A stretch of DNA of 64,000 nucleotides from a bacterium (GTDB lineage Bacteria > J088 > JAWLBW01): positions 1 to 64,000 of the forward strand of contig JAWLHK010000013.1 in assembly GCA_041690355.1 (NCBI GenBank). The letters run 5' to 3'. Under the pieces are notes generated by a model. That model was not told the DNA's origin, made no database searches, and saw only the letters and a program-made list of their open reading frames with translations. Shown here one piece after another: positions 26,909 through 50,731 of the stretch. The translations under genes were made by a program, and so were the position numbers. Every line of letters starts with the position of its first letter. The stretch's first letter is position 1.

Positions 26909-26980
26909 AATCGTCAATCGTCAATTGTAGATTGTCAATTTGCCTGATTCGTCACTCCTCACTCGTAACTCGTCACTTGA
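26909..26980. repeat. Degenerate heptamer tandem tracts (AATCGTC)n + (CACTCGT)n
   Basis: aatcgtc aatcgtc aattgta gattgtc; gattcgt cactcct cactcgt aactcgt cacttga. Confidence 0.85.
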
Positions 26981-26981
26981 G

Positions 26982-27575
26982 TCAGGGGCGTGCCTCTTCG
27001 CCGGCCTGTGCCTGCGCCGGCTCGGCCGCCTCGGCCTGCCGCACGCACTGGACTTCGGCTTGAATCTTGACGGCGTTGGCCACCAGTACGCCGCCGGTCT
27101 CGATGACCTGGTTCCAGCGCAGCCCCCAGTCGCGCCGATCGATCTCGCCCGCGGCCGAGAAGCCGACACGTTCGTTGCCCCAGGGGTCGGTACCACGGCC
27201 GTCGAAGCTGGCGTCGAGCTCGACCTCAATGGTCGTGGTGCAGATCGTGAGGTCGCCGATCACGCGGAACCGGTCTCCCTCTTTCTTCATGGCGCCATTC
27301 ACCTGCCGGCTTCGGAAGCGGATTTTCGGGTGCTTCTCGACGTTGAAGAAGTCGGCCGAGCGCAGGTGGTTGTCGCGGTCGGCGACGCCGGTGTCGATGC
27401 TGGCGACGTCGATCTCGGCCGTCACGTACGAGTTGTCGGGAATTTCGTCGTCGGTGAGCACCTCGACGGTGAAATCGCGGAAGCGGCCGCGCACGGTCGT
27501 GATCATCATGTGCTTGACCGAGAATTCGATGCTGGAATGCGTGGGGTCGGCCACCCACCTCGTTTTCTTCGCCAT
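26982..27575 (-). CDS. yceI: YceI family polyisoprenoid-binding protein
   Basis: DPTHSSIEFSVKHMM, RDNHLRSADFF, DPWG. Confidence 0.95.
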   Translation of the reverse strand: MAKKTRWVADPTHSSIEFSVKHMMITTVRGRFRDFTVEVLTDDEIPDNSYVTAEIDVASIDTGVADRDNHLRSADFFNVEKHPKIRFRSRQVNGAMKKEGDRFRVIGDLTICTTTIEVELDASFDGRGTDPWGNERVGFSAAGEIDRRDWGLRWNQVIETGGVLVANAVKIQAEVQCVRQAEAAEPAQAQAGEEARP

Positions 27576-27695
27576 GCTTTCCTCCGGTGTCGAGTCGGTT
27601 CCGGCTGCAGTGGCGAGTATGACACGAATGCGGCCGGGCGAAATCTGCGACGGCGCAATTCGATTGCGCCCGTGAGGTGCAGGGGTGGCGGGGGG

Positions 27696-28037
27696 CTACT
27701 TCTTCAGTCCTGCAAACGGCTTCCAGGTCGACGGGGCCGCCGCTTCGCGGATCTCTGTGCTGCCGTGCGCCGCCTGCTCTTCGAACCGCTGGTGTTCGTT
27801 GTCATGGCAGTAGACGCAGAGGTTCTCCCAGTTGCTGCCGTCGGGCGGGTTGTTGTCGTGGTTGTGGTCTTTGTGATGCACCGTGAGCAGGTGCAGATTG
27901 GCGCGCGTGAACTCCTTGCCGCACCGGGCGCAGACCCAGGGGTGGATTTTCAAGGACTGTTCGCGATAGCCTTTTTCGCGTTCGGCTCGGCTGCGGCGTG
28001 CCGACGCGACCAGTTTTTCCCAGGGTTCCTCTGCCAT
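27696..28037 (-). CDS. yajD: YajD family HNH nuclease
   Basis: YREQSLKIHPWVCARC...TVHHKDHNHDNNPPDGSNWENLCVYCHDNEH. Confidence 0.95.
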   Translation of the reverse strand: MAEEPWEKLVASARRSRAEREKGYREQSLKIHPWVCARCGKEFTRANLHLLTVHHKDHNHDNNPPDGSNWENLCVYCHDNEHQRFEEQAAHGSTEIREAAAPSTWKPFAGLKK

Positions 28038-28082
28038 GAAGACAGGGTATCGCAGAACCGCATGGCGGTCACGTGCCGCCGA

Positions 28083-28197
28083 AAGCGACAAGCGCCGAGG
28101 ACCAAGCGCCAAGCAAAGGCGAACGAAGGGTACAACGGCGAGCGTCCGGTTCGTGTTTCGCCGGTTACCGTCTACGGACTACGGATTTCCGGCTACC
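28083..28197. repeat. Two heptamer tracts (AAGCGCC)n and (GACTACG/GGCTACC)n
   Basis: aagcgac aagcgcc gaggacc aagcgcc at 28083; ggttacc gtctacg gactacg gatttcc ggctacc at 28163. Confidence 0.65.
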
Positions 28198-28771
28198 GCT
28201 TGGGCGGCGGAGTCACCTTCGGCGCCGGAACCCGGTTTTCGAGGGGAGGAATGCTGCGGAGATAAGCGAAGATGGCCTTCAGGTCTTCTTCCGTCGCTTT
28301 GCCCAGGTTGAACCAGGGCATCGGGGGCAGAATCGGACGCCCCTGGCCCATGTGCTTGCCCGTGCGCATGGCCTCGACGAATTCCTTCTCCGTCCATCCG
28401 CCGAGGCCCGTCTTGTGCGGCGTCAGGTTGGCGGCATAGGAAATCCCCCATGGCCCCGCAAAGGCCGTCATGCTCCCCGTGGCCGCCCAGGACCAGGGTC
28501 CCTCGGGGATCCCCTTGGGCGCAGTCAGTTCGCCATTCTGGTGGCCTGAAAGCATCCGGCTCCCGTCCGGTTCGGGTCCCTTGCTCCCCATCTTCCACGG
28601 GGTGTGACAATCGCCGCAGCCGCCGACCGTGACCAGGTATTCGCCCCGTTTCACGGCGTCTCCCTCGGCCGCGAAGGCCCAGGGGGTTTGCGCCTGCGGG
28701 AGTACGCCGGCCACCATGAGCAATACGATACCCAGCCAGACGACTGCAAAGGGCACGAGTCTGCGGACCAT
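28193..28771 (-). CDS. Exported monoheme cytochrome c
   Basis: RGEYLV..GCGDCHTP; ANLTP; PPMPW distal Met; N-terminal signal. Confidence 0.9.
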   Translation of the reverse strand: MVRRLVPFAVVWLGIVLLMVAGVLPQAQTPWAFAAEGDAVKRGEYLVTVGGCGDCHTPWKMGSKGPEPDGSRMLSGHQNGELTAPKGIPEGPWSWAATGSMTAFAGPWGISYAANLTPHKTGLGGWTEKEFVEAMRTGKHMGQGRPILPPMPWFNLGKATEEDLKAIFAYLRSIPPLENRVPAPKVTPPPKR

Positions 28772-28872
28772 GTCTCATTCTCCGTCGAAGAAATATCCGC
28801 CTATCTTACGGCGAGACAGATCGGCAGGGGAAGGGGGTCGCAGAGCCGAGCGTAATTTTCTACAATGCCTCC

Positions 28873-29529
28873 ATGGCTTATCATCTCTCTCCACAAGAAG
28901 TGCGCGTGCTCGGTTGCCTCATCGAGAAGGAACTGACGACGCCCGACGCCTATCCGCTCAGCCTCAACGCGCTGACCACCGCCTGCAACCAGAAATCGAG
29001 CCGCGAGCCGGTCGTCGAGTACGACGAAGAGACCGTGCAGACGGCGGTCGACACCCTGCGCGACAAGGGGTTTGCGCGGCTGGCGACGGCCGGCGACGCG
29101 CGGGTGCGCAAATATCGCGAAAGCCTGGGCCCCGATCGCCAGCTCGTGCCGCGCGAGCTCGGTCTGCTCAGCCTGCTGCTGCTGCGGGGCTCGCAGACGC
29201 CGGGCGAGCTCAAGAGCCGTTCGGGGCGGATGTACGAATTCGCCGATCTGGAGGAGGTAGAACGCACGCTGGCCGATCTGACGGAACGCGGATTCGTTCT
29301 GAAGCTTGCGCGTCAGCCCGGGTCGCGGGAAGCACGATGGGCGCACCTGTTCGGCGAAGAGCCGACGGCCGAGACGGTGCCCACCCCCGCGCAGGCGGCG
29401 CGCTCGGTGATACCCGACGCCAGCGTCGATCACGGACGCATCGCCGCACTCGAAGTCGAGCTCGATGGGCTGCGCAAGGAAATCGAGGCGTTGCGCGAGG
29501 CCTTCGAAGAGTTCCGCCGGCAGTTCTGA
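28873..29529 (+). CDS. yceH: YceH / DUF480 family protein
   Basis: RVLGCLIEKE.TTPD.YPLSLNAL..ACNQKSSREP; RG.QTPGEL. Confidence 0.93.
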   Translation: MAYHLSPQEVRVLGCLIEKELTTPDAYPLSLNALTTACNQKSSREPVVEYDEETVQTAVDTLRDKGFARLATAGDARVRKYRESLGPDRQLVPRELGLLSLLLLRGSQTPGELKSRSGRMYEFADLEEVERTLADLTERGFVLKLARQPGSREARWAHLFGEEPTAETVPTPAQAARSVIPDASVDHGRIAALEVELDGLRKEIEALREAFEEFRRQF

Positions 29530-29539
29530 ACAGGTCGGT

Positions 29540-30565
29540 TCAGGGCGGGGGGAGCGGCTGGTAGCGCGGATCCGTTCCGTTGATTTCTGCCCAGAGGTCC
29601 GACAGCTTCAGAGAGCGGTCAGAAGTTCTGTCGACCCATTCGGTGGGCACCTGCCGATCGGGGTGAAAGCGGATGCCCCAGATCGGGTCGAAAGCGTCGG
29701 TGCGCAGGGAGTAGCGGACGTCGCCCATGACCGAGGGGTCGTCCAGGGCGCGTGCCACCCATCCGGAAGAGAACCAGCGGAAGCGCTCGAAGTCCCGCAT
29801 GGTGCGTTCGCGGTTGCGCACCCACGGCGGGAGCTCTTTCCCGGTCAACAGGGGAACGCTGCTCCCCTCGGACCACTGCGCACTGCCGAACCAGGGTATG
29901 CGGATGCGGTCGACATACAGTCTTCCGTCGGCTTCGTACAGCGAACGCCACACCCACTGGTTGGCCAGCGTGGGAAAGACTTCGCCCCGAACGCGCGGCG
30001 GATGGTTGCGCGTCAGGGCAATCTGCTCCTGCGCGGCAAGCGCGCGATCGCGCTGCACGGCACCGAGTGCGAGATAGAGCAGGGCGAAGGCGAGGGCCGC
30101 GAGAACGGGTCCACGCACGTTTCGCACGACCGACCAGACGAGCCCGATCAGGAGCGCGAGCGTGAAGACCGGATCGACGATGGAGACGGTGTCCCAGGCC
30201 ACCCGGACGTTCGAGAAGGGCCAGAGCAGCTGGGTGCCGTAGGTCGTGCAGGCGTCGAGCAGCCCGTGCGTGGCGTAGCCGACCGTAGTGGCGCCGACGA
30301 CCGCTTTCCACTGCTTCCGGTATCCCCGGCGAACGAAGAACGGCAGGGCGACCAGCAGACCGCCGATGGGGATGAAGGCGAGGCTGTGCGTGAAGTGCCT
30401 GTGGTACTCGATGGCGAGCAGCGGGTCGGTCTCGCTACGGATGAGCACGTCGAGATCGGCCGCCATGCCGCCGGCCGCGCCGAGCAGCCAGGCCGCGTTC
30501 AGTTTCTTCCCGAAGATCGGTTGCGCCGCCGCGGCGCCGAGCAGTCCCTGCGTGACGGGATCCAC
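29540..30565 (-). CDS. Membrane-bound metal-dependent hydrolase (YdjM/DUF457-like)
   Basis: MDPVTQGLLG, DLD, HRHFTHS, HGLLDACTTYG. Confidence 0.9.
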   Translation of the reverse strand: MDPVTQGLLGAAAAQPIFGKKLNAAWLLGAAGGMAADLDVLIRSETDPLLAIEYHRHFTHSLAFIPIGGLLVALPFFVRRGYRKQWKAVVGATTVGYATHGLLDACTTYGTQLLWPFSNVRVAWDTVSIVDPVFTLALLIGLVWSVVRNVRGPVLAALAFALLYLALGAVQRDRALAAQEQIALTRNHPPRVRGEVFPTLANQWVWRSLYEADGRLYVDRIRIPWFGSAQWSEGSSVPLLTGKELPPWVRNRERTMRDFERFRWFSSGWVARALDDPSVMGDVRYSLRTDAFDPIWGIRFHPDRQVPTEWVDRTSDRSLKLSDLWAEINGTDPRYQPLPPP

Positions 30566-30652
30566 GGATTCACTCCAGATGCGGTAGGCGGAACCCCCCC
30601 TGGCGGGCGCTCCGTGGCGATCACTGTAACACAGAGCAGGGGCCGAACCGGC

Positions 30653-31321
30653 TCAGGCGGTCTTCTTTGCGATCCAGACGGTGTGGCGTCCGCCGCGGGT
30701 CTTTCTGGCGCGGGGATGCAACTGTTCCACCGACCACGGCAGGGCGCGCAGACGGCGATCGAAGGCGTCGTCGACGGCCACCGACCAGACCCCGAGGATT
30801 CCGCCCGGACGCAAGGCGGCGTACAGTTTGCGGAGCCCGGGCGCGCCATAGAGTTTTTCGTTGTCCGGATGGGTCAGCGCGCCGGGCCCATTGTCGACAT
30901 CGAGCAGGATGGCATCCCAGGTCGCGGGTGTGAACTGCAGCGCGACGTCGCCTTCGGCCACCGTGACTCGCGGATCCGCCAGCGGATTCCCCGCCAGGTG
31001 AGCGAGCGGTCCCCGGTTCCACGTGACCACGGCGGGCACCAGTTCGGCCACGGTCACCTGCGCTTCGTGACCGAGGCGCGCAAGGGCGGCGGCCAGCGTG
31101 TATCCCATGCCGAGACCGCCGATGAGTACGCGCGGGTTCCGCGTTTCCGCACGACGGGTGAGCGCCTCTTCGGCCAGCGCGTCTTCGGAGCCGTGCAGGC
31201 CGCTGTTCATCAGCTCATGGCCGTCGACCGTGATCGAATATTCCGTGCCCCGGCGCTGCAAACGCAGTTCGCTGGCGCTGCCGGGCACCGGTGCGCGATC
31301 GAGAAGTTCCCAGGGGATCAT
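30653..31321 (-). CDS. Spermidine synthase-like SAM-dependent methyltransferase
   Basis: LMNS..HGSE, IGGLGMGYT, LLDVDNGP. Confidence 0.88.
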   Translation of the reverse strand: MIPWELLDRAPVPGSASELRLQRRGTEYSITVDGHELMNSGLHGSEDALAEEALTRRAETRNPRVLIGGLGMGYTLAAALARLGHEAQVTVAELVPAVVTWNRGPLAHLAGNPLADPRVTVAEGDVALQFTPATWDAILLDVDNGPGALTHPDNEKLYGAPGLRKLYAALRPGGILGVWSVAVDDAFDRRLRALPWSVEQLHPRARKTRGGRHTVWIAKKTA

Positions 31322-31328
31322 GCTTTGC

Positions 31329-31994
31329 TTACCAGGGGAGCACGTCGCCGTTCGAGTGCCAGAAGGTACCCGAATTCTCGAGGTTCAGCCCATCGATGCG
31401 GGCGGCGAGGCGTTCGGCAGCCGTGTCGGCCGAGATGTCGCCCGAACCGCCCACCATGTCGGTCTGCACGAAGCCGGGGTGCAGGATGGCGACCGGAATT
31501 CCGCGCGGCTGCAGGTCATGCGCCAGCGAGACGGCCGCCATGTTGAGGGCGGCCTTGGACATCCGGTACCCGTAGCGGGAGCCGGACGTGTTGTCGGCGA
31601 TGGAGCCCATGCGGCTCGTGACGAAAGCGAGTTTCGATCCCTGATGAAGATTCCGCAGCAGGGCATGGGTGACGAGCAGCGGCCCGAGCGCGTTCACCGC
31701 GAACTGCTCGCGGATGGATTCCACGTTCATCTCGTCGAGGGATTCGCGACGCAGAATACCGGCGTTGTTGATCAAGAGGTCGATCTGCGTATCTCCCAGG
31801 GCCTTCGCGAGCGCGGCTGCGCCCGACTCGGTTCCGACGTCGATCCCTTCGATAACCTGCGCGGCGACGGCCTGTAATTCGGGCGAGGACTTCCGGCACG
31901 CGCCGATGACGCGATCGCCGCGTTTGGCGTAGAGGCGGGCGAGGGCGAGGCCGATACCGCGGTTGGCTCCGGTGATGACGACGGTCTGGGGCAT
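31329..31994 (-). CDS. Short-chain dehydrogenase, CsgA/C-factor-like
   Basis: TGANRGIG, NNAG, SRMGSI.DN.SG..YGYRMSKAALN, HPG.V.TDM. Confidence 0.92.
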   Translation of the reverse strand: MPQTVVITGANRGIGLALARLYAKRGDRVIGACRKSSPELQAVAAQVIEGIDVGTESGAAALAKALGDTQIDLLINNAGILRRESLDEMNVESIREQFAVNALGPLLVTHALLRNLHQGSKLAFVTSRMGSIADNTSGSRYGYRMSKAALNMAAVSLAHDLQPRGIPVAILHPGFVQTDMVGGSGDISADTAAERLAARIDGLNLENSGTFWHSNGDVLPW

Positions 31995-32112
31995 GGGGCG
32001 ATCCTCCGGGTCACGAGGGGAAACCGGTATTGTACCGCGTCGGCGGCGGGTGGGGTGGTCCGGGGGGACGGATCCTCTCCGCGCATCCGTGCATCCGTGT
32101 GTCCGCGGGGGG

Positions 32113-32345
32113 ACATTCCGTGGACGCAGGTGTTCCCCGGGTCCCATTTCCGTGGGTGGGCCATTTGGCCCGGGGCCGGTCGGCGGGTGCACCATGTGGC
32201 CCGGGGCCCTGCCCCGGGCTGTAAGCCCGGCGGACCTTCAGCCCGCCCGGATCCGCGCCGCGAACGGGTGTGGCCTCGCGGTACCACCGAAAAACGAAAA
32301 CGGAAAACAAAAAATGGAAAAACGAAAAGCGAAAAACGGAAAAAC
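32113..32345 (+). repeat. Composite repeat element copy A (33-bp units + REP-like palindrome + A-rich heptamers)
   Basis: GTGCACCATGTGGCCCGGGGCCCTGCCCCGGGCTGTAAGCCCGGCGGACCTTCAGCCCGCCCGGATC at 32187-32253, then (GAAAAAC)-like x8 at 32289-32345. Confidence 0.85.
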
Positions 32346-32350
32346 CGCCG

Positions 32351-32725
32351 TCACGAGGTCCCTTCGGCCTTGGGCGCCTCCTGCCACGGCCACCGCCCGT
32401 TGATCTCGACCTCGAGGGTGAAACTGAGAAACGTTCGGATGGCCACGATGATAGCGAGCACGCCTACGTTGCGGAACGTGAAATCGACGGCTACCGTGCG
32501 GATGATGTCGGCCGCGACCAGGAATTCGAGGCCAAGCAGGATGCCGTGGGCGAGCCGGTGGCGAAAGGTGCGCGTCAGATCGCGGGTGTCGGGGCTCCCC
32601 CGGATCAGGTGCAGCGCAGCCGCCCCCGTGGCGAACAGGGCCACGCCCGCGATGACGCCGATCCCGAGGAACTCGAGTCCGCTCGCGGCCAGACGGGCGG
32701 CGGTTTCTACGGCGGTCTCGAACAT
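32351..32725 (-). CDS. DUF1622 family small membrane protein
   Basis: ILLGLEFLVAADIIRTV...IRTFLSFTLEVEI.GRWPWQ. Confidence 0.93.
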   Translation of the reverse strand: MFETAVETAARLAASGLEFLGIGVIAGVALFATGAAALHLIRGSPDTRDLTRTFRHRLAHGILLGLEFLVAADIIRTVAVDFTFRNVGVLAIIVAIRTFLSFTLEVEINGRWPWQEAPKAEGTS

Positions 32726-32878
32726 GCCGCCGAGGGGGGATGTGCGGGCGTTTTCGCGTGGGGGGCCACGAAGGTCATCGGCCCCATCCTACGTGACTAC
32801 GCCGCACAACGGAAGGTATCTCCGACATCGATCTGTGCACCATGGTGCGTGCATGTGGTGCGGGGACCGATATGGGCC

Positions 32879-33267
32879 CATTGCGCGCGTGCACGTGTTC
32901 CTCGGCCCGATTCCGTGGGTGCACGGTTCCCGACGTATCGGTTCGTGCACCATGTGCCCCGGGGCGCGGTTCCATGGGTGCGCGATGTGGCCCGGGGCCC
33001 GTGTTTCCACGTGTGATCCGTGTGGTGTGAACCATATGGCCCGGGGCGCGTTTCCACGTGTGAACCATGTGGCCCGGGGCCGTTTCCAGGTGTGAACCAT
33101 ATGGCCCGGGGTGTGGTTTCCGGGGGTGCACGATGTGGCCCGGGGCCCTGCCCCGGGCTGAAGGCCTGGCGGACCTTCAGCCCGCCAGGATCATCCTCCC
33201 GAAAAAGCCGTGCGCCGCAGGTACCGACGAAAAACGAAACGAAAAACGAATTACCAAAACGGAAAAC
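32879..33267 (+). repeat. Composite repeat element copy B with about six tandem 32-35-bp units
   Basis: Units GTG(A/C)AC(C/G)AT(G/A)TGGCCCGGGGCGCGTTTCCACGT from 32945; same terminal palindrome at 33126-33192; GAAAAAC tract at 33229-33267. Confidence 0.9.
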
Positions 33268-33276
33268 CCGGACCCC

Positions 33277-34278: not shown

Positions 34279-34415
34279 GCGATCGGCCTCGAAAAGGGTT
34301 GGGGGTACGCTACCACAGCGGCGGGGCGGATGAAAAGACGAACACGCCGCAATCCTCGGCATGCCGGGCCTCCGCCGGTTTCGCCCGGCGCACCGAAAAC
34401 GGGTAGGATCACCGA

Positions 34416-34871
34416 ATGCAGACGCTTCTCGATACACCGCATTCGCTGTTCAGCTACGCGCCCCTTTTCCGCACACTCCGGGCGCCGACCCTTTCGGACC
34501 TCACGGGAGACTTCGAGGCCGCGCTGGTGGGGCCCGCCTGGTTCTGCGCCGTGTCGCGCGTGAGCCTGCGCTTCGGCGGACTGCCCGACTGGTTCGGGAA
34601 GCGCTTTGACGGCGCGGGGCGGGGGATCAATCTGCTCGGGACCGAAGGAGCGCTTCGCGAAGCGCTTCCGATGCGGGTGAGCGTCGTTCCCTCGCTACTC
34701 GATGGTAACCCCGTGGCCGCCGTCCGCTACGCCGCGGATGCTCCGTTCCCCTGGCGGTACGTCGTGGATGAACTGCGCGTGGCCGACGAGCGCACGCTGC
34801 TCGGGATGACCTTGCTCGACCTGCCCGTCGCGCGCCGCTTCGCGCTCCCCTTTCTTCTGCGGCGTCCGTGA
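34416..34871 (+). CDS. Hypothetical protein coupled to cholesterol oxidase
   Basis: W.GKRF...G.N and DELR motifs; GTGA overlap with the downstream oxidase. Confidence 0.7.
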   Translation: MQTLLDTPHSLFSYAPLFRTLRAPTLSDLTGDFEAALVGPAWFCAVSRVSLRFGGLPDWFGKRFDGAGRGINLLGTEGALREALPMRVSVVPSLLDGNPVAAVRYAADAPFPWRYVVDELRVADERTLLGMTLLDLPVARRFALPFLLRRP

Positions 34872-36454
34872 GCGGATTCGACTGCGATTATCTGGTCATC
34901 GGCAGCGGCTTCGGCGGCAGCGTCGCGGCGCTGCGTCTCGCCGAGAAAGGCTACCGCGTTCTGGTGCTCGAACAGGGGCGCCGCGTGGGGGGCGAGGATT
35001 TCGCCGCCGCCGACCGATCCCTGCGCGAGCTGTTCTGGATGCCTGCGCTCGGCATGCGCGGGTTCTTCACGCAGCACGTGTTCCGCCACGTCGGCATCGT
35101 GGGTGGCGTGGGGGTCGGCGGGGGGAGCCTCGTGTATGCCGCCGTCCTGCTGAAGCCGAAGGATGCGTTCTTCACGGATCCCGTCTGGAGCGGTCTCGGC
35201 GTCGACTGGAAGGCGGAACTGGAGCCGCACTACGAAACGGCGGTGCGGATGCTCGGACGCGCGCCCAACCCGTTCTTCGGCGAGCAGGATCGGCATCTGC
35301 AGGCGGCCGCGCAGCGCGTCGGGGCCGGCGACACGTTCGGTCGCGTGGTCAACGGCATCTACTTCGGCGGAGACGGCGTCGGTCTGGGCGAAACCGTCGC
35401 GGACCCTTTCTTCGGCGGACGCGGACCTGCGCGCACGGCGTGCAACGGGTGCGGAACCTGTCTGACCGGATGCCGCTACGGCGCGAAGAACAGCCTCGAC
35501 AAGAACTACTTGCATCTGGCCGAAGCGCTCGGCGCCGAGATCCGCTCCGAATCGAAAGCGGTGAGCCTGGAGCCGATCCCGGGGGGCGGGTATGCCGTTG
35601 AAACGGTTCACCCCTGGCGCGCCGGTGAGTCCCGCACATTCCGCGCGAAACATGTCGTGCTCGCGGCCGGCGTGCTCGGGACGCTCGAACTGCTTCTGCG
35701 CTGCCGCGACGAGCTGGGCACGCTGCCCGCGCTGTCGCGTCACCTGGGCACGATGGTGCGCACGAACAGCGAAGCGATCGTCGGCATTCTCGCGCCCGCG
35801 GACAGCCCCGACCTGTCGGCCGGAGGGACGGCCATCACGACCGATTTCTATCCGAATCCGCAGACGCACATCACGCAGAACCGGTTTCCCGTCGGCTACA
35901 CCTATATGCGCGGATACTTCGGACCGCTGGTCGACGATTCGGTCCCCTGGCGGCGCGCAGTGCGGGTCGTCGGCGCGATCCTGGCGCGGCCGCTCCGCTC
36001 GCTGGCTTCGTGGACCGCACGCCGCTGGCATGAGCGCATGACGGTGCTCACGGTCATGCAGCATGCGGAAAACGCGCTCCGGTTTCGGTGGGGTCGCAGC
36101 CTGTGGAGCGGTTTCCGCAAAGGGCTCCAGTCGGCGCTCTGGCAGGGGGCGCCGTCACCCACGTATCTTCCGGAAGCGAACGCGGCTTCGCGGGCCCTGG
36201 CCGAAGCGACGGGGGGAATTCCGCTCAATCTGATGACCGAAAGCGTTCTCGGGCTTTCGACCACGGCGCACATTCTGGGAGGCTGCCGTATGGGGCGGAA
36301 CGCCGAGGAGGGGGTCATCGGCGCGAACCATGAAGTACATGGTTACCCGGGTCTGTACGTGGTCGACGGCGCGGCCGTGTCGGCCAACGTCGGCGTCAAT
36401 CCGAGCCTGACGATCACGGCGCTGGCCGAGCGCGCGATGAACCTGATCAAGTGA
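34868..36454 (+). CDS. Cholesterol oxidase-like GMC oxidoreductase (ChoD type)
   Basis: GSGFGGSVAALRLAEKGY, CNGCGTCLTGCRYGAKNSLDKNYL, TAHILGG, GVNPSLTITALAERAM. Confidence 0.92.
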   Translation: MSGFDCDYLVIGSGFGGSVAALRLAEKGYRVLVLEQGRRVGGEDFAAADRSLRELFWMPALGMRGFFTQHVFRHVGIVGGVGVGGGSLVYAAVLLKPKDAFFTDPVWSGLGVDWKAELEPHYETAVRMLGRAPNPFFGEQDRHLQAAAQRVGAGDTFGRVVNGIYFGGDGVGLGETVADPFFGGRGPARTACNGCGTCLTGCRYGAKNSLDKNYLHLAEALGAEIRSESKAVSLEPIPGGGYAVETVHPWRAGESRTFRAKHVVLAAGVLGTLELLLRCRDELGTLPALSRHLGTMVRTNSEAIVGILAPADSPDLSAGGTAITTDFYPNPQTHITQNRFPVGYTYMRGYFGPLVDDSVPWRRAVRVVGAILARPLRSLASWTARRWHERMTVLTVMQHAENALRFRWGRSLWSGFRKGLQSALWQGAPSPTYLPEANAASRALAEATGGIPLNLMTESVLGLSTTAHILGGCRMGRNAEEGVIGANHEVHGYPGLYVVDGAAVSANVGVNPSLTITALAERAMNLIK

Positions 36455-36594
36455 CGAGTTACGAGTGACGAGTGCCGAGTTTCCGACAAGGACACAGATC
36501 ACCACGGCCTTGTTGATTGGCGCTCAGCGCTCGGCGCTGTTCCCAGTGACGATTTACGAGCTGCCAGCTACCCGTTACGCAATACGAGTATCCG
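36451..36594. repeat. Three-module heptamer tract (GTGACGA)n-(CGGCGCT)n-(GTTACGA-like)n
   Basis: gtgacga gttacga gtgacga gtgccga; tggcgct cagcgct cggcgct; gtgacga tttacga gctgcca gctaccc gttacgc aatacga. Confidence 0.85.
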
Positions 36595-36597
36595 TCC

Positions 36598-37407
36598 CTA
36601 CGGCTGGATCGCCGGCCCGCCGGAAGAGGAGCGACTCAGGATTTCCTGAGCGCGCTTCACGTGAGGCCGCTGCATGAGCTGCTTCCACGGGGGAAGCGAG
36701 CGCCAGGTCATGAACAGGGCGCCCTGCGGCGTCGGGCGCAGAAACGGATCGGTCTCGGCGCCGCGCCAGTAGCCGCTGGCCAGATGGCGGCTCACATCCC
36801 GGCGCTCGATCTCCTGCTGAAACGCGACGACATCGGTGACGGTCGTGTTGCGGCCGGCATACGGATCCGCGGCGACACGGGCCTGGTGCAGCGCCCACAT
36901 CTCCTCGATCGGCCGCATGGCCGGAAGCGTGACGGCGTCGTCGTCGGCCCGCGGCGGAAAAGGCTGGTGCACCGTCGTGCACGCCGTATGGATCCAGTTC
37001 CCCTGGGTTCGGCTCCGCGAAAAAAGGAGCCCCTCGCCGACCTGCACGCCGTTCTGTTCGGCAACGAAGACCATCGACAGGTCCGTCGTCTGTGGATGCT
37101 GGAGCAGGGCCACCGTCATCTGTTGGGGCAGGACGTCTTCGAGCGGTTTCACCCGGCCGACCTCGGCAAACCCGAGATCCTTCAGTCCGGTGACCATTTC
37201 TTCGAGGCGCTGCTGCGCGGCAGGAAGTTCGCCATAACCGGGGACGACGGCGCGCAGCGGAATGCCGACCGGATACTTCTGGGTGAAGTAAATGACGAAC
37301 GGCATGAACCAGTAGGGGAGCAGCACCGCGAGCGCTGCCGACGCGTACCACGGAATCGGCAGCGCGAAGAGGCCTGCGGTCACCGCCAGTGTCAGAATCA
37401 GGACCAT
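36598..37407 (-). CDS. Hypothetical membrane-anchored protein
   Basis: Two N-terminal TM segments then a soluble domain; coding-like GC3. Confidence 0.7.
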   Translation of the reverse strand: MVLILTLAVTAGLFALPIPWYASAALAVLLPYWFMPFVIYFTQKYPVGIPLRAVVPGYGELPAAQQRLEEMVTGLKDLGFAEVGRVKPLEDVLPQQMTVALLQHPQTTDLSMVFVAEQNGVQVGEGLLFSRSRTQGNWIHTACTTVHQPFPPRADDDAVTLPAMRPIEEMWALHQARVAADPYAGRNTTVTDVVAFQQEIERRDVSRHLASGYWRGAETDPFLRPTPQGALFMTWRSLPPWKQLMQRPHVKRAQEILSRSSSGGPAIQP

Positions 37408-41905: not shown

Positions 41906-41909
41906 TTCT

Positions 41910-42861: not shown

Positions 42862-42870
42862 CAGAAAGAA

Positions 42871-43033
42871 TTTGCGAGTGACGTGTGACGAGTGACGAAT
42901 TACGAGTGACGAGTGAGAACCCTCGGCTGCCGCAGGGGCACGTAGGTGGCGCTCGGCGCCTGGCGCTTCAGAACAACCGGGGGACCTGCGACTGAATCCT
43001 GGGGACCGGCGACTGAGGACTGACGATTACTGA
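42871..43033. repeat. Three-module heptamer tract (GTGACGA)n-(TGGCGCT)n-(CTGAGGA-like)n
   Basis: gtgacgt gtgacga gtgacga attacga gtgacga; tggcgct cggcgcc tggcgct; ctgggga ccggcga ctgagga ctgacga. Confidence 0.85.
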
Positions 43034-43113
43034 CCGGCGCCCCCCGGACATCCCGTGCACCGTGTCTCGGGCACGGTATAATATAGCCGGCCGAACGTCA
43101 ACTCGACTCCCAC

Positions 43114-44295: not shown

Positions 44296-44297
44296 CC

Positions 44298-47200
44298 TCA
44301 AGCGCGGCGGGAGGCGCGCTTCCCCAGAATCCGCACAGCCGACAGAGCAAGCAGCAACAGGAGCGCGGGCATTTCGGCCGTCGCGCTGCGGCATCCGGCG
44401 CGCACAGTCGGCGGGGCGGCACGGGGCGCGAAGGTCATCCCGTGTGCGCCGTCGCGGGCGGCGGTCCGTGCATACTGCGGCCACTGCGCGTCGGCCATGC
44501 GCCCCTTCGTCTGCCAGGCGAAGATCTGGCCGTTGCGCGTGGCCTGCACGAGCGTCGCCCGGCCGTCGCCGTCCAGATCGGCGAGCACCGGGGTCGCGAT
44601 GAGCCACGAACCGGTGAATTTCGGCCAGCCGGCAGAGTCCTTGCCGTCGGCGCGATAGGCGTGCACGTAGTAACCGGAGCTGCCCGCGATCACCTCGGGG
44701 CGCCCGTCGCCGTCGACGTCGCCGATCAGGGGATTGGTCACCATGGCCCAGCCTTCGATGCGGCGCGGGTAGTAGGGGAGAAACTTTCCGTCGGCGCTCC
44801 AGCCGGTGACCAGATGGTCGACCTCGGGAACCCGCCCGTCGGCCATTTTTTCGGCCAGCGTGTTCGCGACCAGCTCGCCGAGACCCATGCCGGCGGCGAA
44901 GATTTCGGGAACTCCGTCGCCGTCGATATCGCCGACCGAAGCGAGCGAATTCGTCCACCCGGCGAGCAGCGGCTCGTCGGTGTTGTTGCCCCGCGCGAAT
45001 TCGGCCTGATTCCTGGCCAGCAGGCGCACGTCGGACGTCCCCGACCAGATTGCGCCGATGCCGCCGAAGCCGCCGGCGATGATCTCCAGTGCGCCGTCAC
45101 CATCGAGATCGACGACCGTGACGCCGCCTGAAATCCCTTCGCCCAGAATGGGGAGTCCGAAAGGGGCCACGATGGTCGGCATGGCCCGGTTCCCCACGAA
45201 CGGTCCGCCGGGGGCCGCATTTCCGCGGCCGTCGACGGCATAGAGATAGCCGATGACGCCCCGGCGAATCTCGTTCGTGCCGATGACGATGTCGACCTGG
45301 CCGTCGCCGTTCACATCGCCCACCGCCGGCGCGCTCGCGGCCGGCTTCGGCCGCTCGGCCCCCGACGCCGCGTCGTCCTGCGTCCACTCGTCGCTCAGGT
45401 GCACGGGGAAGCCGGGGCGCGGGCGGCCGTCGGCATTCCACACGTACAACTGCTGGTCCTGCGCGCCGGCGATGACTTCAAGCGTGCCGTCGTCATCGAG
45501 ATCGGCGAGTACGGCGGGGCCATAGAGGCGCGCGCGGGTCTTTTCTTCTCCGGGGTACCGCGAGAGGCCCGTACGCGCCGGGGCAGTCCAGAATGCCGTA
45601 CCATCGGCGCGAAGGGCGTGCACTTCGCCGAGCAGGCCGGGGACGACGACTTCGGTTCTCCCGTCGCCATCCAGATCGCCGGCCGCGGGGGCGCCGAGAA
45701 TCGGCATGCCGCGGGGCAGGTCGCGCAGCTCGGCCGGAAGTCCCGCGCCGTCGAACGCCGGCAGCGCATAGGACCAGCGTACCGAACCGTCGCCATTCAG
45801 GGCGCGTACGATACCGGCGCTGTCGGCGGCGACGATCTCGTCCTTGCCGTCGCCGTCCAGATCGACGGCGAGCAGCGAGCCCTCGAAGCTCGAATCGAAG
45901 TCGAGCGGAAATCCAGGCCGCGTGTCGGGATCGCGATGCACGAAAAAGGTGAGGCGATCCTCCCCTTCCAGACCGGTGGTCTGGTCGGTGACGACGAGGC
46001 GTACCGTGATGGAATGACTCTGCGGATTCCCGATTTCCGAGAGCGGGTCGACTTGTGGCGGCGGGAGAAGCTTCGCTGTTTCGACGACCGCCCCCGGAAG
46101 ATCGCCGTCGAGCGCCGTGGCCGACCTCCCGTCGGCAATCCGGTTCCACGTGGCGGGGGGAATTCCCGATCCCCACTCGGCACGCCAGGCGAGCGCATGG
46201 CCGTTGCGTCCGGCGACGCGGCCGCGCAGGGTCAACGTGGGGGTGCGCACCGGGTCGACGACGTGGAACCAGGCGGGGAACTCCAGATCTGCGACGGGGG
46301 GGATTTTCCCCTCCACGACGGCGCGCACGGCGGCGGCCGCGTCGATGCGGCCGTAGCCCGTGAAGGGATCCCAGCCGGGGACAGCCCCCCACTTGGTTCC
46401 CCGAATGTCGGTCGCGGTCATCCGGAGCACCTGGAAGACCTCGTCGGCGCCCAGCGGGGTACCGTGCCGGCGCGCCGCCGCGTGAACGAGCGCGGCGGTG
46501 GCCGCCAGGTGAGGGGTCGCGCTGCTGGTGCCCCCTTCGCGGCGCGTTCCGGTGCGATCTTCGAACGGGCGCATCGTCCACGTATCGGTCGGCGCGGCGA
46601 ACATGAGATGGGCGCCGTAGTCGGTCGTGTTGTTCTTCTCGGTGTACATGCCTTCGCGCGAGGCGGCTTCGATGACCGAGCCCACGGCGTAGACGGAATC
46701 GATGACGGCGGGAAATTCGTGATGGTAGTGGCTCTCGTTTCCGCTGGCGGCGGCGCTCACGACCCCCCGGTCGCGGGCGTAGCGGAAGGCGGCTTCGAGA
46801 AACGCAGAACGGCCGGTGGCCCCCAGGCTCATGTTGATGCTGTCGGCGCCGTGATCGGCGCAGTAGACGGCGGCCCGCGCCAGGGTGTCGTTCGTGTGCA
46901 GAATCGAATCGCCGACGCGCACGGGCAGAAGGCGCGCTTCGGGGGCGATGCCGGCCAGCCCGACGCCGTTGTCGGCCTCGGCGACGAGAATGCCGGCGCG
47001 TCCGCTGCCGTGGCCGTTCTGCCAGAGATCGTAGGCGTCGTCGTCGTCATCGTCGAAGTCCCAGCCGGCCAGATTGTCGACGAAGCCGTCGCCGTCGTCG
47101 TCGATGCCGTTGCGGAAGTGGAGAAGCAGATCGGCCACCGTAAGCAACGCCGGATCGAGCACGAACGTGTTGCCGGCAATGTCTGTGGTCGCCGCATCAA

Positions 47201-47483
47201 AGTCTTCGAGCCCGAGAACGCCGTCGGCGCCCGCGGTGATCCAGGCGGGGAACTCGGTGGGATTCAGGGCGATGCGGTTGCGCACCTCCTCGTGCAGGTA
47301 ATCGATGCCGTCATCGAGTACGCAGATGACGGCGCCGTGGCCGCGGGTTACCGCCCAGGCGCCGACGGCGTCGATGCCGACGGCGTGCAGGTTCGTCTGT
47401 TCCGCAAAGAGGGGATCGTTGGTGGCAAGCGCCGGCGCGGCGGCCGATACGCCGAGAAACAGGAGGGCTGGGAGGATACGCAT
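44298..47483 (-). CDS. Secreted S8 subtilase with FG-GAP repeats and a C-terminal GC-TM-basic sorting tail
   Basis: Catalytic LDDG / GHGS / GTSSATPH; many DLDGDG repeats; tail AGCRS...LLLLLAL..RASRRA. Confidence 0.92.
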   Translation of the reverse strand: MRILPALLFLGVSAAAPALATNDPLFAEQTNLHAVGIDAVGAWAVTRGHGAVICVLDDGIDYLHEEVRNRIALNPTEFPAWITAGADGVLGLEDFDAATTDIAGNTFVLDPALLTVADLLLHFRNGIDDDGDGFVDNLAGWDFDDDDDDAYDLWQNGHGSGRAGILVAEADNGVGLAGIAPEARLLPVRVGDSILHTNDTLARAAVYCADHGADSINMSLGATGRSAFLEAAFRYARDRGVVSAAASGNESHYHHEFPAVIDSVYAVGSVIEAASREGMYTEKNNTTDYGAHLMFAAPTDTWTMRPFEDRTGTRREGGTSSATPHLAATAALVHAAARRHGTPLGADEVFQVLRMTATDIRGTKWGAVPGWDPFTGYGRIDAAAAVRAVVEGKIPPVADLEFPAWFHVVDPVRTPTLTLRGRVAGRNGHALAWRAEWGSGIPPATWNRIADGRSATALDGDLPGAVVETAKLLPPPQVDPLSEIGNPQSHSITVRLVVTDQTTGLEGEDRLTFFVHRDPDTRPGFPLDFDSSFEGSLLAVDLDGDGKDEIVAADSAGIVRALNGDGSVRWSYALPAFDGAGLPAELRDLPRGMPILGAPAAGDLDGDGRTEVVVPGLLGEVHALRADGTAFWTAPARTGLSRYPGEEKTRARLYGPAVLADLDDDGTLEVIAGAQDQQLYVWNADGRPRPGFPVHLSDEWTQDDAASGAERPKPAASAPAVGDVNGDGQVDIVIGTNEIRRGVIGYLYAVDGRGNAAPGGPFVGNRAMPTIVAPFGLPILGEGISGGVTVVDLDGDGALEIIAGGFGGIGAIWSGTSDVRLLARNQAEFARGNNTDEPLLAGWTNSLASVGDIDGDGVPEIFAAGMGLGELVANTLAEKMADGRVPEVDHLVTGWSADGKFLPYYPRRIEGWAMVTNPLIGDVDGDGRPEVIAGSSGYYVHAYRADGKDSAGWPKFTGSWLIATPVLADLDGDGRATLVQATRNGQIFAWQTKGRMADAQWPQYARTAARDGAHGMTFAPRAAPPTVRAGCRSATAEMPALLLLLALSAVRILGKRASRRA

Positions 47484-47563
47484 GGAAGATACTCTACCCC
47501 GGCGCCCCCCGATCTCCAAGCCGCCCGGGAGGGGGCCCTGTTCCCCGCCTTGTTCTTGCTTCC

Positions 47564-47591
47564 TCAGGAATTAGGAATCAGGAATCAGGCA
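47564..47591. repeat. Heptamer tract (TCAGGAA)4
   Basis: tcaggaa ttaggaa tcaggaa tcaggca. Confidence 0.75.
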
Positions 47592-47623
47592 TGCCGCGAA
47601 GCGGCTTGCGGTAAACTGAGCGC

Positions 47624-48559
47624 ATGGCTTCACTCATTGCGACCGTCACGCTCAATCCGGCGCTCGACCGCCTGCTCGAGGTGGATCGGCTTTCGGCCGA
47701 CGACGCCAACCGCGTCCGCAACGAAGCGCACTATGCCGCGGGAAAGGGGATCGACGCCTCACGCGTCATCCACGAAATGGGGGGCGACACGGTGGCCTAT
47801 GGCATGGTCGGCGGGATGAGCGGCGCCGAAATCGAAGCCCGGCTCCGGGAAGCGGGGGTCCCGAGCGATTTCGTCATGGTCGCGGGGAATACGCGCACGA
47901 ACCTGCTGCTCAAGGACAAGGAAGCCGGTCACCAGTTTCTCATCAACGCGGCGGGTCCCCCGGTCACACCGGAACAATTCGAGGCGCTGCTGACAAAACT
48001 GGAGCGCAAGCGGGGGCGTTTCGGCGCCGTCATCGCTTCGGGCAGTATTCCCGCCGGACTTCCGAAGGATGCCTACCGGACCATCGTGGAGCGGCTTGCG
48101 GACGTGCGGGTGTTCGTCGATGCCGACGGCGACGCCCTGGCCGAGGCGGTGAAGGCGAAGCCGTGGGCGATCAAGCCGAACCGGCATGAAGCTTCGCGCC
48201 TGCTGGGGCGAACCGTCGAGACCGAAGACGAAGCGCTCGCCGCCGTACGCGATCTGGCGGCGCTCGGGATGGAACACGTGCTGCTGTCCATGGGCAGAGC
48301 CGGGGCGCTGCTGGCGACCGGCGGGCGCATCTGGCGGGGCCGTTCTCCCGAGGTTACGGCCATCAGCGCCGTCGGAGCGGGGGATACGATGGTCGCGCTC
48401 TATACGTTGCGCACCGTCGAAGGCGAGCCGCCCGAAGAAGCTTTCCGCTGGGCCCTGGCCGGCGGAGCGGCGACGGCCATGACCCCGGGGACGGAACTCT
48501 GCCACCGGGCCGATGTGGAGCGGCTCGTGAGAGAAACTACGGTTTCGCAGGTGGCGTAA
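47624..48559 (+). CDS. 1-phosphofructokinase family (PfkB) hexose kinase
   Basis: TVTLNPALD, GKGI, KPNRHE, SAVGAGD. Confidence 0.93.
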   Translation: MASLIATVTLNPALDRLLEVDRLSADDANRVRNEAHYAAGKGIDASRVIHEMGGDTVAYGMVGGMSGAEIEARLREAGVPSDFVMVAGNTRTNLLLKDKEAGHQFLINAAGPPVTPEQFEALLTKLERKRGRFGAVIASGSIPAGLPKDAYRTIVERLADVRVFVDADGDALAEAVKAKPWAIKPNRHEASRLLGRTVETEDEALAAVRDLAALGMEHVLLSMGRAGALLATGGRIWRGRSPEVTAISAVGAGDTMVALYTLRTVEGEPPEEAFRWALAGGAATAMTPGTELCHRADVERLVRETTVSQVA

Positions 48560-49577
48560 GCTTCCAGCCGCCGGTGTCGCCGTTGCCGGTGACGACCGCG
48601 GCCAGGCGCAGGGCTTCTGCCCGCTCGGGCTCGGGGGCCAGTTCGACGGCCGCGCGAGCCTCGTCGACATCCTGGTCCCGCCAGGCGCGCGCCATGGCGA
48701 CCACCCAGCGCGCCCCCGAGTTGCGCCCCACGATGCCGCGCGTGAACAGCTCGTTGAGCACCCCTTCGGCCTTGCGGATGTTCTCGTCGACCTCTCCCTG
48801 GCCGGTATGCGTGCGCACCAGCGCGAGTCGCGCGCGCGCGAACGGTTCGAGCAGGTTGCTCCCTTCGCCGACCGCTTTCACGTACAGTTCATCGGCGCGG
48901 GGCAGATCGCCGCGGTAGAAGGCCACCGTGCCGAGACCGTACAGACCGAGCGGGCGCTGATCTTTCTGGCGCACGCCCAGCAGCTTCTTGAAGGATTCCT
49001 CGGCGCCGTCCAGGTCACCCTGTTGCAGGCGGGTCCACCCCTGTAGGTAGAGTGCCGAGGGGTTGATGGCGTCCTGGGCCAGGGCCGCCTCGATCATGCT
49101 TCCGGCGCGCTCGGCGTCGCCCAGGCGCATCCAGGCGTGCGCAAACTGGCTGCAGAGCATCGCCTTCATGGGGCCCGGCATGCGCGTCTTCTCCATGAGC
49201 ATTTCGCCTTCGGCAAGCACGGTGCGCGCGTCACCCTTGAGGTCCGGGTGCAGGGCCGTGTCTGCGAAAAGCTGATAGGCCGCGAGGATGGCGGCCGGCA
49301 TCTTGGTCTTCGTAAGGGCCTGGCGCAACGGCTCGAGGGCGTCGTCGGGGCGCCCCATCTTGAGATAAACGCGACCCAAGGCGGCCCAGGCCATCCCCCG
49401 GCCGATGGGGTTGATTCCGGTGGCCGCCTTGGTAAAGCGGCGCACCGACTCCTCATACCGCCCCTTCTGCTGGGCCAGGTCGCCGCGGGCGTAGAGGTAC
49501 ATGGCGTGGGCGTAGATGCCCGTCAGGATGGTCAGCGGAACGCCGACGACGAAAAAAAGGATGCTGAACAGATCCAC
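48537..49577 (-). CDS. Membrane-anchored TPR protein
   Basis: N-terminal TM; repeated A...LG..Y...G TPR consensus. Confidence 0.85.
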   Translation of the reverse strand: MDLFSILFFVVGVPLTILTGIYAHAMYLYARGDLAQQKGRYEESVRRFTKAATGINPIGRGMAWAALGRVYLKMGRPDDALEPLRQALTKTKMPAAILAAYQLFADTALHPDLKGDARTVLAEGEMLMEKTRMPGPMKAMLCSQFAHAWMRLGDAERAGSMIEAALAQDAINPSALYLQGWTRLQQGDLDGAEESFKKLLGVRQKDQRPLGLYGLGTVAFYRGDLPRADELYVKAVGEGSNLLEPFARARLALVRTHTGQGEVDENIRKAEGVLNELFTRGIVGRNSGARWVVAMARAWRDQDVDEARAAVELAPEPERAEALRLAAVVTGNGDTGGWKLTPPAKP

Positions 49578-49650
49578 GGTAACCCGGAGCAGAGGAGAAA
49601 ACGATCACGGTAATCGGATGCGCCGGTCATTGCAAGCCGGGGCCGCTCAG

Positions 49651-49694
49651 AAAAAAAGACGGCAGATGCGATCCGGAGATCGATCCGCCGTCTT
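49651..49694 (-). terminator. Strong intrinsic terminator
   Basis: AAGACGGCGGAT-CGATC...GATCG-C-ATCTGCCGTCTT stem followed by a T run on the minus strand. Confidence 0.85.
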
Positions 49695-49822
49695 CAGAAA
49701 AGGGCGCTCAGGTCACAACCCGATATGGCATGTGCGAGCGACGGGCAGTCAGGTGCCGTCGCCGCACGGTAACGCTGGAAACAGCCTCTCGGAAGTGCGC
49801 ACCCGCGTCGGCAGTCAGTCAT
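49694..49822 (-). CDS. Putative 42-aa Cys-rich peptide
   Basis: MTDCRRGCALPRGCFQRYRAATAPDCPSLAHAISGCDLSALF; ATG overlaps the upstream stop; stop abuts the terminator. Confidence 0.35.
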   Translation of the reverse strand: MTDCRRGCALPRGCFQRYRAATAPDCPSLAHAISGCDLSALF

Positions 49823-50018
49823 GCCCGGCGTCGCGCGCGACCTGCGGCTCAGCCATGGCCGTGACCAGCAGGTTGCGAATGAGGCGCGATACGGGAATGT
49901 TCAGGCTTTGAGCCTTCTGACGCAGGGCATGGTCCAGGGCGGGGGGAATGCGCGCGTGGAGCACGCAGTCCTTGCGCCCGTCGGCCAGCCCCTGCAGCTG
50001 CTCGGGGTACGGAGTCAT
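49815..50018 (-). CDS. Ribbon-helix-helix DNA-binding protein
   Basis: VLHARIPPALDHALRQKAQSLNIPVSRLIRNLL fits the RHH pattern. Confidence 0.75.
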   Translation of the reverse strand: MTPYPEQLQGLADGRKDCVLHARIPPALDHALRQKAQSLNIPVSRLIRNLLVTAMAEPQVARDAGHD

Positions 50019-50021
50019 GAC

Positions 50022-50294
50022 TCAGGCTCCGATGAACTTCTTGACCCACGTCTCGGCCTGCTCGCGCACGGCCAGAGCGTCGCGGCGGGCCACGGCGGCC
50101 AGGTTCTCGCCCCGTTCGCGAAGTTCCAGCGCGCTGTCGACGGTCGTCGTCACGAAGGAGACGACCGGCTCGCGCAGGTCTTCGACGGCATTGTGAACGA
50201 CGGGGCGCAGGCCTTCGACGAAGGCTTCGGCGCGATCAAAAGCGGTAACGACGCGGTCCCGCAGACCCTGTTCGATGGCGGCATACGTAATCAT
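50022..50294 (-). CDS. Small amphipathic helical protein (phasin/apolipoprotein-like)
   Basis: GAGGAAA SD; alternating hydrophobic/charged helices; own promoter. Confidence 0.7.
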   Translation of the reverse strand: MITYAAIEQGLRDRVVTAFDRAEAFVEGLRPVVHNAVEDLREPVVSFVTTTVDSALELRERGENLAAVARRDALAVREQAETWVKKFIGA

Positions 50295-50363
50295 GGTTTC
50301 TTTCCTCTCGTTTCGGTTCGTTCAAAAAGTGAAAAGCAGGTCAACGCTTACTGAGTTGTCCAC

Positions 50364-50392
50364 ACTTTATCGCGGATGACGCGGCGTGTCAA
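50364..50392 (-). promoter_or_regulatory. Sigma70 promoter TTGACA-17-TAAAGT
   Basis: Near-consensus boxes with a 17-nt spacer upstream of the 50294 gene. Confidence 0.75.
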
Positions 50393-50580
50393 GAGAAAAA
50401 GATCGCCAATGATTTATGCCCACTTTGGCAAGGCTCTTCTGCGGGGGTGGCCCTTGTGACACGCCTTGGATGTTGCCCAGTATGGATCGGTCCCCCCGGG
50501 AATGCAAGGGGTATCACGGAATGCGCAGCCCAGAAAATGTGGTACGCCATCCCGCGCGTCAAAAACGCCAGTTGAGAGAA

Positions 50581-50731
50581 TTGACGATTGACGATCTACA
50601 ATTGACGATTTCCTGCATGGGGCTCGCGCAGTTCTCGTCGCCGATGAGTGGCGTGCGACTTCTTGGACAAGGACCGCGAGTCCGTCGAACGCACGCTCAA
50701 TCGTCAATCGTAAATTGTCAGTTGTAAATTC
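50581..50731. repeat. Inverted heptamer tracts (TTGACGA)n ... (TCAATCG)n around an ~88-bp spacer
   Basis: ttgacga ttgacga tctacaa ttgacga / tcaatcg tcaatcg taaattg tcagttg. Confidence 0.85.

Follow-up and report, generated by a model that had tools for sequence, protein, structure and literature searches.

The stretch of DNA considered here, referred to as the window, comprises 64,000 nucleotides (C13:1-64000) of the bacterial genome G000 (4.64 Mb, 42 contigs). A preliminary description of it listed eight intervals between 26909 and 50731, all at gene junctions, in which degenerate 7-bp units are repeated in tandem, and took them for a candidate undescribed gene-capture or recombination signal left by a mobile system acting at gene ends. 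The question raised by the locus is what these tracts are and how they came to stand beside genes. The window is an ordinary sample of a genome-wide tract family. The reading that we prefer, with a probability of roughly 0.6, is that the tracts are the ends of cassettes carrying a four-helix-bundle gene, of the intervening sequence (IVS) type, along with non-autonomous debris of such cassettes, and that they were copied at the DNA level by a trans-acting factor or by host recombination, a ring of the four-helix-bundle protein serving as an end-binding adaptor.

Arms at gene ends throughout the genome

The genome-wide period-7 scan proposed in the preliminary description was done as a maximal-segment scan of all of G000, with a threshold that trims the short end of the arm lengths. 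It returned 699 period-7 and 102 period-8 segments, versus 6, 15, 16 and 20 segments at periods 5, 10, 11 and 13, so that chance is excluded. Genes were called with a purpose-made codon model (3937 genes, 86% coding), and start positions are therefore approximate. Only 21 of the 699 period-7 tracts lay inside called genes, and ten groups of unit sequence accounted for 663 of them. A search of window positions 26000-52000 gave no Rfam match.

The tracts are arms with a narrow size range and a fixed polarity. Four units were present in 396 of 694 arms, and three to five units in 623. For the four commonest units, the strand after stop codons was biased 53:2, 44:4, 25:1 and 15:0, and the opposite strand was found before starts. 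The outer end of the arm lay within 10 nt of a stop in 188/367 cases (75 expected) and within 10 nt of a start in 23/340 (53 expected). When placed in a common orientation the families share a non-periodic inner motif, approximately GGCAAGGAC, which in its strict form was found on the inner side of 194 of the 699 tracts versus 24 other placements, with a background of 73 in 20000 spacer windows; family H lacks this CAAG motif. The 801 arms fell into 510 clusters, 310 of them single arms, and neighbouring arms faced one another 156 times and stood back to back 11 times, often with the families mixed. G000 thus has the properties of the class of intergenic heptamer long simple sequence repeats (long SSRs): a genome-wide and mostly intergenic period-7 excess, about four units per run, the sense strand after stops and the antisense strand before starts, and inverted pairs.

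Occupied spacers were clumped (137 adjacent pairs versus 93 expected), and neighbouring clusters held the same family in 112/418 cases versus 87 (p=0.001), which suggests some local spread. Two pairs of paralogues differed at single junctions: at C5:87347, compared with C5:85051, an arm was added 6 nt before the stop, where 6 nt of sequence match the unit, and at C4:31174, compared with C4:32548, the arms at one junction were swapped. The search for clean empty sites inside G000 was negative, giving 38 flank-pair matches with few informative paralogue pairs. The 144 two-armed clusters showed no fixed-length excess of target-site duplications (at least 5 nt, 29 versus about 19 shuffled; at least 6 nt, 6 versus about 5), in a test where the outer ends are uncertain by about one unit. 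A second, palindromic repeat, resembling repetitive extragenic palindromes (REPs), also occurs throughout G000; of its 129 strict copies, 101 are no more than 300 bp from an arm, and the repeat frequently lies inside arm spacers or forms part of tandem arrays (e.g., C18:119-522 and C5:187171-187690).

The same-family relative used for comparison was G001 (67% DnaB identity), represented by its longest contigs (1.86 Mb, about 41%). These held 131 period-7 and 37 period-8 tracts, mostly with other units and another flanking word, and five matches to the four-helix-bundle family PF05635. The CAAG motif was present at one of the 131 G001 tracts, and the idea of a universal inner motif was rejected. 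Gene order was kept at 44/57 tract junctions and 176/222 tract-free junctions (P=0.72), and a one-sided order test gave 44/126 versus 189/457 (P=0.22). Orthologues were present for 210/722 genes beside tracts and 541/1996 others (P=0.31), i.e., there was no excess of lineage-specific genes beside tracts. The synteny check called for in the preliminary description thus found tract placement to be unrelated to breaks, and the idea of a gene-capture or recombination signal was not upheld. The arms are instead lineage-specific additions to stable junctions, gained separately in the two lineages: among 220 kept junctions, arms were present only in G000 at 39, only in G001 at 12, and in both at 5. 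The spoU-ftsW junction, for example, is kept and arm-free in G001, and dnaB is followed by an arm in both genomes, with different units. The partial sequences of three further genomes, G002-G004, two of them only 84% complete, had no tracts in 313 kb and no PF05635 match; the comparison of tract density with PF05635 presence covers G000-G004.

Protein ends are affected as well. The cholesterol oxidase C-terminus reads LIK before the stop in G000 versus LIPPKDEVE in G001. Among the 18 genes whose stop is covered by an arm, systematic truncation was not found (relative to G001 the product is shorter in 5, the same in 2 and longer in 11; pooled P=0.52), although the cholesterol oxidase is a clear case. 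Because C-termini are rewritten, and because arms fill 449 of the 2120 G000 spacers of at least 60 bp, the arms shape gene ends in this genome.

Four-helix-bundle genes and the period of their arms

G000 has ten PF05635 genes over the cut-off and one weak match. An arm lay within a few hundred bases of all ten. Seven were between inverted arms of the same family (E twice, F, H, A, J, and octamer X), one was between direct C arms, and two had a single arm; one of the ten genes is frameshifted and one has an internal stop. The arrangement of the seven, all of which are outside the window, is that of an IVS-type cassette, i.e., a PF05635/TIGR02436 open reading frame between inverted repeats. The location in 23S rRNA was not seen, as the window tracts are between protein genes and the cassette genes neighbour called protein genes. 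Gene-less arms outnumber the four-helix genes by about 80 to 1 in G000, and the window copies are gene-less, being empty elements or solo arms with no PF05635 gene inside the window. The suggestion that the tracts are footprints of a spreading element at gene ends, tied to four-helix-bundle genes, is thus supported by polarity, stop placement and the PF05635 arms. Of the other gene associations proposed, that with GxxExxY genes held for one of two, which is bracketed by octamer runs in direct orientation, and the Y1 gene had no arms.

Several of these loci have further features. Around a 6.4-kb open reading frame, C5:67558-81174 and C2:371993 hold three near-identical four-helix cassettes, whose arms are of family E, together with a further one that has an internal stop, which suggests recent duplication. 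The frameshifted gene at C26:16397-16630 (with L028) has an intact G001 orthologue with similar inverted heptamer arms. At C11:140035-141120 a GxxExxY gene is followed by a tandem array of units of about 80 bp, each with an octamer run of a type that also flanks four-helix genes in Acidobacteriota.

A WRKRRY-type motif is common to the octamer-flanked proteins of G000 and G001. WRKRRY queries gave 80 loci by sequence alone, and of their 156 flanks, 67 were period-8 and 5 period-7. For the 28 best Pfam matches, 30 of 54 flanks were period-7 and 4 period-8; control windows (n=233) gave 6 and 3. In a pooled set of 186 PF05635 genes, from which the duplicate L243 was dropped and matches of <35 bits or <60 columns were excluded, the WRKRRY clade had 57 period-8, 3 period-7, 1 period-9 and 21 uncalled genes, with period 8 seen in 15 named phyla, and the other 104 genes included 63 with period 7 and 12 with period 8. 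Arm pairs in the pooled set were inverted in 77/134 cases and direct in 7/134. A third clade, which includes a gene flanked by family A, one of the arm families of the window, gave 69 period-7, no period-8 and 11 uncalled among 80 metagenome loci, which are close to the query and may include kin; 47/58 of its arm pairs were inverted, and six loci had the family A unit of the window. G000 and G006 each hold both clades with both periods. Repeat period follows protein clade, not host. Gene and arms have been inherited together as a single long-lived unit, the period of which persists longer than the sequence; this is not proof that the protein measures the unit.

In Coxiella, as described by Warrier et al. 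(2016, PMC4990558), tandem heptamers precede the S23p open reading frame of the IVS, and the family fold is a homopentamer. In the preferred reading, a cassette consists of an inverted arm, a four-helix-bundle gene and a second inverted arm, as in 23S rRNA IVSs, with far more numerous gene-less derivatives in the form of empty two-armed elements, solo arms and stacked mosaics. We put at even odds the proposal that a homopentameric four-helix ring binds the roughly four repeats of an arm, so that the unit length would be a ruler set by the protein. A little short of that is the proposal that ring-bound ends are copied to new sites at the DNA level, much as for REPs and REPINs, by a trans-acting enzyme or by host short-homology recombination. 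Existing arms and other palindromic repeats would be favoured targets, and mosaics would build up as a consequence. The host-specific inner motif, CAAG in G000 and another word in G001, might be the signature of a host-side factor. Survival beside stops might reflect targeting or tolerance, in that an arm could replace the last codons and would not disturb promoters. Slippage may still alter unit number after insertion. The full proposal, that heptamer and octamer repeats are the recognition arms of undescribed transposase-free cassettes, with an Avd-like ring binding about four units, protein clades setting the 7- or 8-nt unit, and a host-lineage factor copying arms to gene ends, is tentative and, taken whole, rather unlikely.

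A number of observations weigh against this reading. The twelve period-8 genes outside the WRKRRY clade are exceptions to the clade rule. An advance prediction of the unit motif of the third clade failed (11/69 versus 14/55, P=0.26), and a pattern recognized post hoc (59/69 versus 9/55) fits only two of six clade members in the earlier sample. On the trees, a quick tree and a FastTree of 105 columns that were poorly resolved, the clade-period link is one independent contrast, for which simple co-inheritance is as good an explanation as protein binding. Avd, the homologue that has been studied, binds nucleic acid without detectable sequence specificity, according to the published account (PMC5758913). 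Spacer cores were shared in 30/87 cases versus 0 shuffled, which is weak proof that whole composites move because the cores are mostly the second, nested palindromic repeat. No strain-level empty site was seen, the same-family genome compared being G001. No mobilising enzyme was found: the IS200-like gene, the six GIY-YIG matches and the reverse transcriptase all lack an arm within 600 bp, and DUF559 loci had arms in only three of five cases, the arms being single and distant. Finally, the assembly contains neither a cognate four-helix gene nor a remnant of one for families B and D, which make up 220 of the 801 arms and several of those in the window.

The tracts of the window

Period-7 sequence was present in all eight intervals of the preliminary description. 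Lag-7 identity in the tract cores was 17/23 to 20/23, 31/42 and 18/21, versus 26% (6752/25993) in the left 26 kb. The intervals are real as period-7 sequence, but four of them (28083-28197, 36451-36594, 42871-43033 and 50581-50731) are not single tracts; they combine arms of 30-50 nt with non-periodic spacers, and in 26909-26980 two arms are stacked. Two reported matches between distant copies were confirmed: the 22-mer at 36447 is present at 26959-26980 in reverse complement, with 22/22 positions identical, and occurs four times in G000, and the sequence at 26916 matches the reverse complement of 50587-50610 at 23/24. The features are as follows.

26896..26904, minus strand: inner motif common to the families, reading GGCAAGGAC on this strand and placed inward of the stacked arms
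26909..26940, minus strand: family A arm with TTGACGA-type units, pointing left into the spacer
26949..26980, minus strand: family B arm with GTGACGA-type units; 1 nt separates its outer end from the yceI stop
26982..27554, minus strand: YceI-like gene (PF04264, gene call), its stop abutting the composite arm
28083..28114, plus strand: short family D arm (AAGCGCC; 18/25), under the genome-scan threshold, upstream of a YajD-type HNH gene
28160..28197, minus strand: weak degenerate period-7 run (20/31), with the cytochrome c stop in its register
32180..32345, plus strand: copy 1 of a local direct repeat (palindromes and an A-rich GAAAAAC run) beside a DUF1622 gene, outside the main arm families
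33119..33267, plus strand: copy 2 of the local direct repeat, 86% over 85 nt, with a 32-33-bp tandem array before it
36447..36480, plus strand: family B arm supplying the stop (36452-36454) of the cholesterol oxidase (GMC oxidoreductase) gene
36481..36594, unstranded: inner CAAG motifs that face each other over a short spacer, with a family D arm in opposed orientation at about 36519-36538 and more degenerate units
42871..42919, plus strand: family A/B arm at the divergent spoU-ftsW junction
42948..43033, unstranded: family D arm in opposed orientation (42948-42968), with another, weak run at 43004-43033
47552..47591, minus strand: family C arm (TTCCTGA on the minus strand, 47564-47591) and inner CAAG motif (47552-47563), between a subtilase gene and pfkB
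50581..50730, unstranded: empty two-armed element with inverted family A arms (50581-50610 and 50697-50730) and an 86-nt spacer, 4 nt from the dnaB stop

Copies on C11, C21 and C35 match the composite at 36481..36594 at 73-77% in alignments of about 125 nt. That tracts supply stop codons was right for the cholesterol oxidase gene, which ends within a strong arm, but the cytochrome c stop at 28193-28195 stands in the weak register only, and the unit there has no three-copy match anywhere in the genome. The GAAAAAC tracts at 32289 and 33229 belong to the separate DUF1622 direct repeat; only one other strict GAAAAAC triple occurs in the genome, which places them outside the main families. That repeat forms a unit of its own at 32123-33267, where the DUF1622 gene (32351-32725) lies between direct repeats made up of 32-33-bp units, GC-rich palindromes and an A-rich run. 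Its palindrome recurs at C18:19903 and is similar to the flanks of an IS200-like gene. The absence of tracts from the left 26 kb is true but unremarkable, because the genome has 37 arm-free stretches of at least 26 kb and the left 26 kb has only 9 spacers of at least 60 bp. At 44298-47483 a subtilase gene with FG-GAP repeats stands between ftsW and pfkB, which are adjacent in G001, and has an arm on one side only.

Other origins and relation to known systems

Fixed polarity and closeness to stop codons would also suit host regulatory RNA elements, in which the arms act at 3' ends in termination, stability or RNase III processing and the four-helix genes ride along. The element at 50581-50730 forms a long hairpin when folded (z=-4.84), Warrier et al. 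(PMC4990558) place the RNase III cut in the stem of the Coxiella IVS at its first heptamer, and Rehm et al. (2015, PMC4692102) describe Xanthomonas repeats at conserved loci, most of them transcribed. Against this, the 310 single-arm clusters are unable to form a stem, shuffled sequences fold as well as the mixed-family element at 36440-36600 does (z=-1.48), and only 5 of the junctions conserved in G001 have arms in both genomes. Regulatory RNA would also leave both the origin of the arms and the link between period and protein clade unexplained, and we consider it unlikely, if the strongest of the competing accounts. Writing of the repeats by a reverse transcriptase, or spread via RNA with the Avd-like protein as a cofactor, is less probable again. 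Avd is described as the required partner of the reverse transcriptases of diversity-generating retroelements (DGRs; PMC5758913), and PF05635 proteins have weak scores with the Avd model; polarity goes with transcription, and target duplication is lacking. The Avd scores, however, were 34 and 21 with a cut-off of 80, arms near starts are oriented as the ends of two-armed DNA elements, and the sole reverse transcriptase found, which is DRT-like and below every cut-off (the matched 165-aa part was scored), adjoins neither an arm nor a four-helix gene.

Integron-like capture or recombination sites that mark gene addition would account for the cassette genes bracketed by arms, for the spread of the genes of window positions 26-38 kb over eight G001 contigs, and for the subtilase gene missing between ftsW and pfkB in G001 with an arm on one side in G000. 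This is very improbable, given that no arm lies on the other side of the subtilase gene, that facing pairs enclosing 250-3000 bp number only 33 and are mostly of mixed families, that tracts are not enriched at synteny breaks or beside lineage-specific genes (in one distant relative, 41% sampled), and that Xanthomonas repeats are described as marking more stable loci (PMC4692102). Slightly less credible still is independent slippage of microsatellites favoured by a 7-nt polymerase footprint, an idea of Mrazek et al. (2007) as summarised by MacGregor (2015, PMC4679880). Units are degenerate and variable, copy number varies, and heptamer excess is said in that summary to be general in bacteria. 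The reduction of nearly all tracts to ten unit groups, the polarity, the facing pairs, the non-periodic inner motif, the sharp four-unit mode and the tie of period 8 to a protein clade refute slippage as the origin.

Cassette ends and their debris have several known relations. Heptamer repeats of cyanobacteria go by the name STRR. REP, REPIN and BIME sequences, with the REP-associated tyrosine transposase (RAYT) genes, form many short intergenic inverted-repeat elements and mosaics, and the cognate gene is bracketed by repeats. The arms of G000 are similar in being short, intergenic, inverted and mosaic, with a bracketed cognate gene. They differ in that the units are tandem heptamers rather than palindromes, the bracketed gene is no transposase, and the one Y1 gene, which is IS200-like, has no arms. 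Nor did the Y1, GIY-YIG and reverse transcriptase genes searched show ends shared with the arms, as would be found for miniature inverted-repeat transposable elements or insertion sequences; DDE transposases were not searched for.

The closest published repeats are the Xanthomonas GGGAATC and Nostoc GGGGA(C/T)T repeats described by Rehm et al. (PMC4692102), which, like those of G000, have about four units, are intergenic, lie up to 50 bp from stops on the sense strand and before starts on the antisense strand, often form convergent inverted pairs, and are not found at unstable loci. G000 differs in having octamers as well as ten or more unit families, most of them unable to form G-quadruplexes; the families are mixed in single elements and have an inner motif in common. 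No cassette or partner gene is proposed in the consulted passages of that paper. Heptanucleotide long SSRs such as the TAACTGA repeats of Beggiatoaceae (MacGregor 2015, PMC4679880) are likewise short intergenic runs, hundreds per genome, that overlap stops and are sporadic; TAACTGA runs stand just before starts, whereas G000 arms avoid starts, and the term 'helix bundle' does not occur in that paper. The 23S rRNA IVSs with an S23p (PF05635/TIGR02436) open reading frame have terminal inverted repeats with tandem heptamers (Warrier et al. 2016, PMC4990558), as do the G000 cassettes, which stand at protein-gene junctions whereas the IVSs are in rRNA. Avd is described as a homologous homopentameric nucleic-acid-binding barrel (PMC5758913), comparable to the PF05635 proteins. 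The G000 proteins differ in scoring below the Avd cut-off, with no Avd match over it beside a reverse transcriptase as in a DGR; template and variable repeats were not searched for.

A literature search with partial journal coverage, limited to main texts, gave no report linking genome-wide heptamer repeats to PF05635 cassettes or linking period to clade. The preliminary description went too far in calling the signal undescribed, since the repeat class and placement rule are already in print (PMC4692102, PMC4679880). The protein-linked period is what this analysis adds; the repeat class (STRR/long SSR) and the placement rule (Xanthomonas) are known, and the class itself is unexplained. Two old open questions, the over-representation of heptamers in many bacterial genomes and the role of the widespread PF05635 proteins, are linked in G000, which provides internal controls in that a single host has several protein clades that differ in their arms. 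The split between 7 and 8 nt offers a direct swap test of why bacteria carry these repeats.

Two minor observations concern the proteins. The single G000 reverse transcriptase (L025, C18:61429-61923) is closest to the Drt3b/Drt4 models, below cut-offs on the part scored, and is possibly a defence gene. The genome G021 has 19 partial PF05635 matches, several of them as close opposite-strand pairs.

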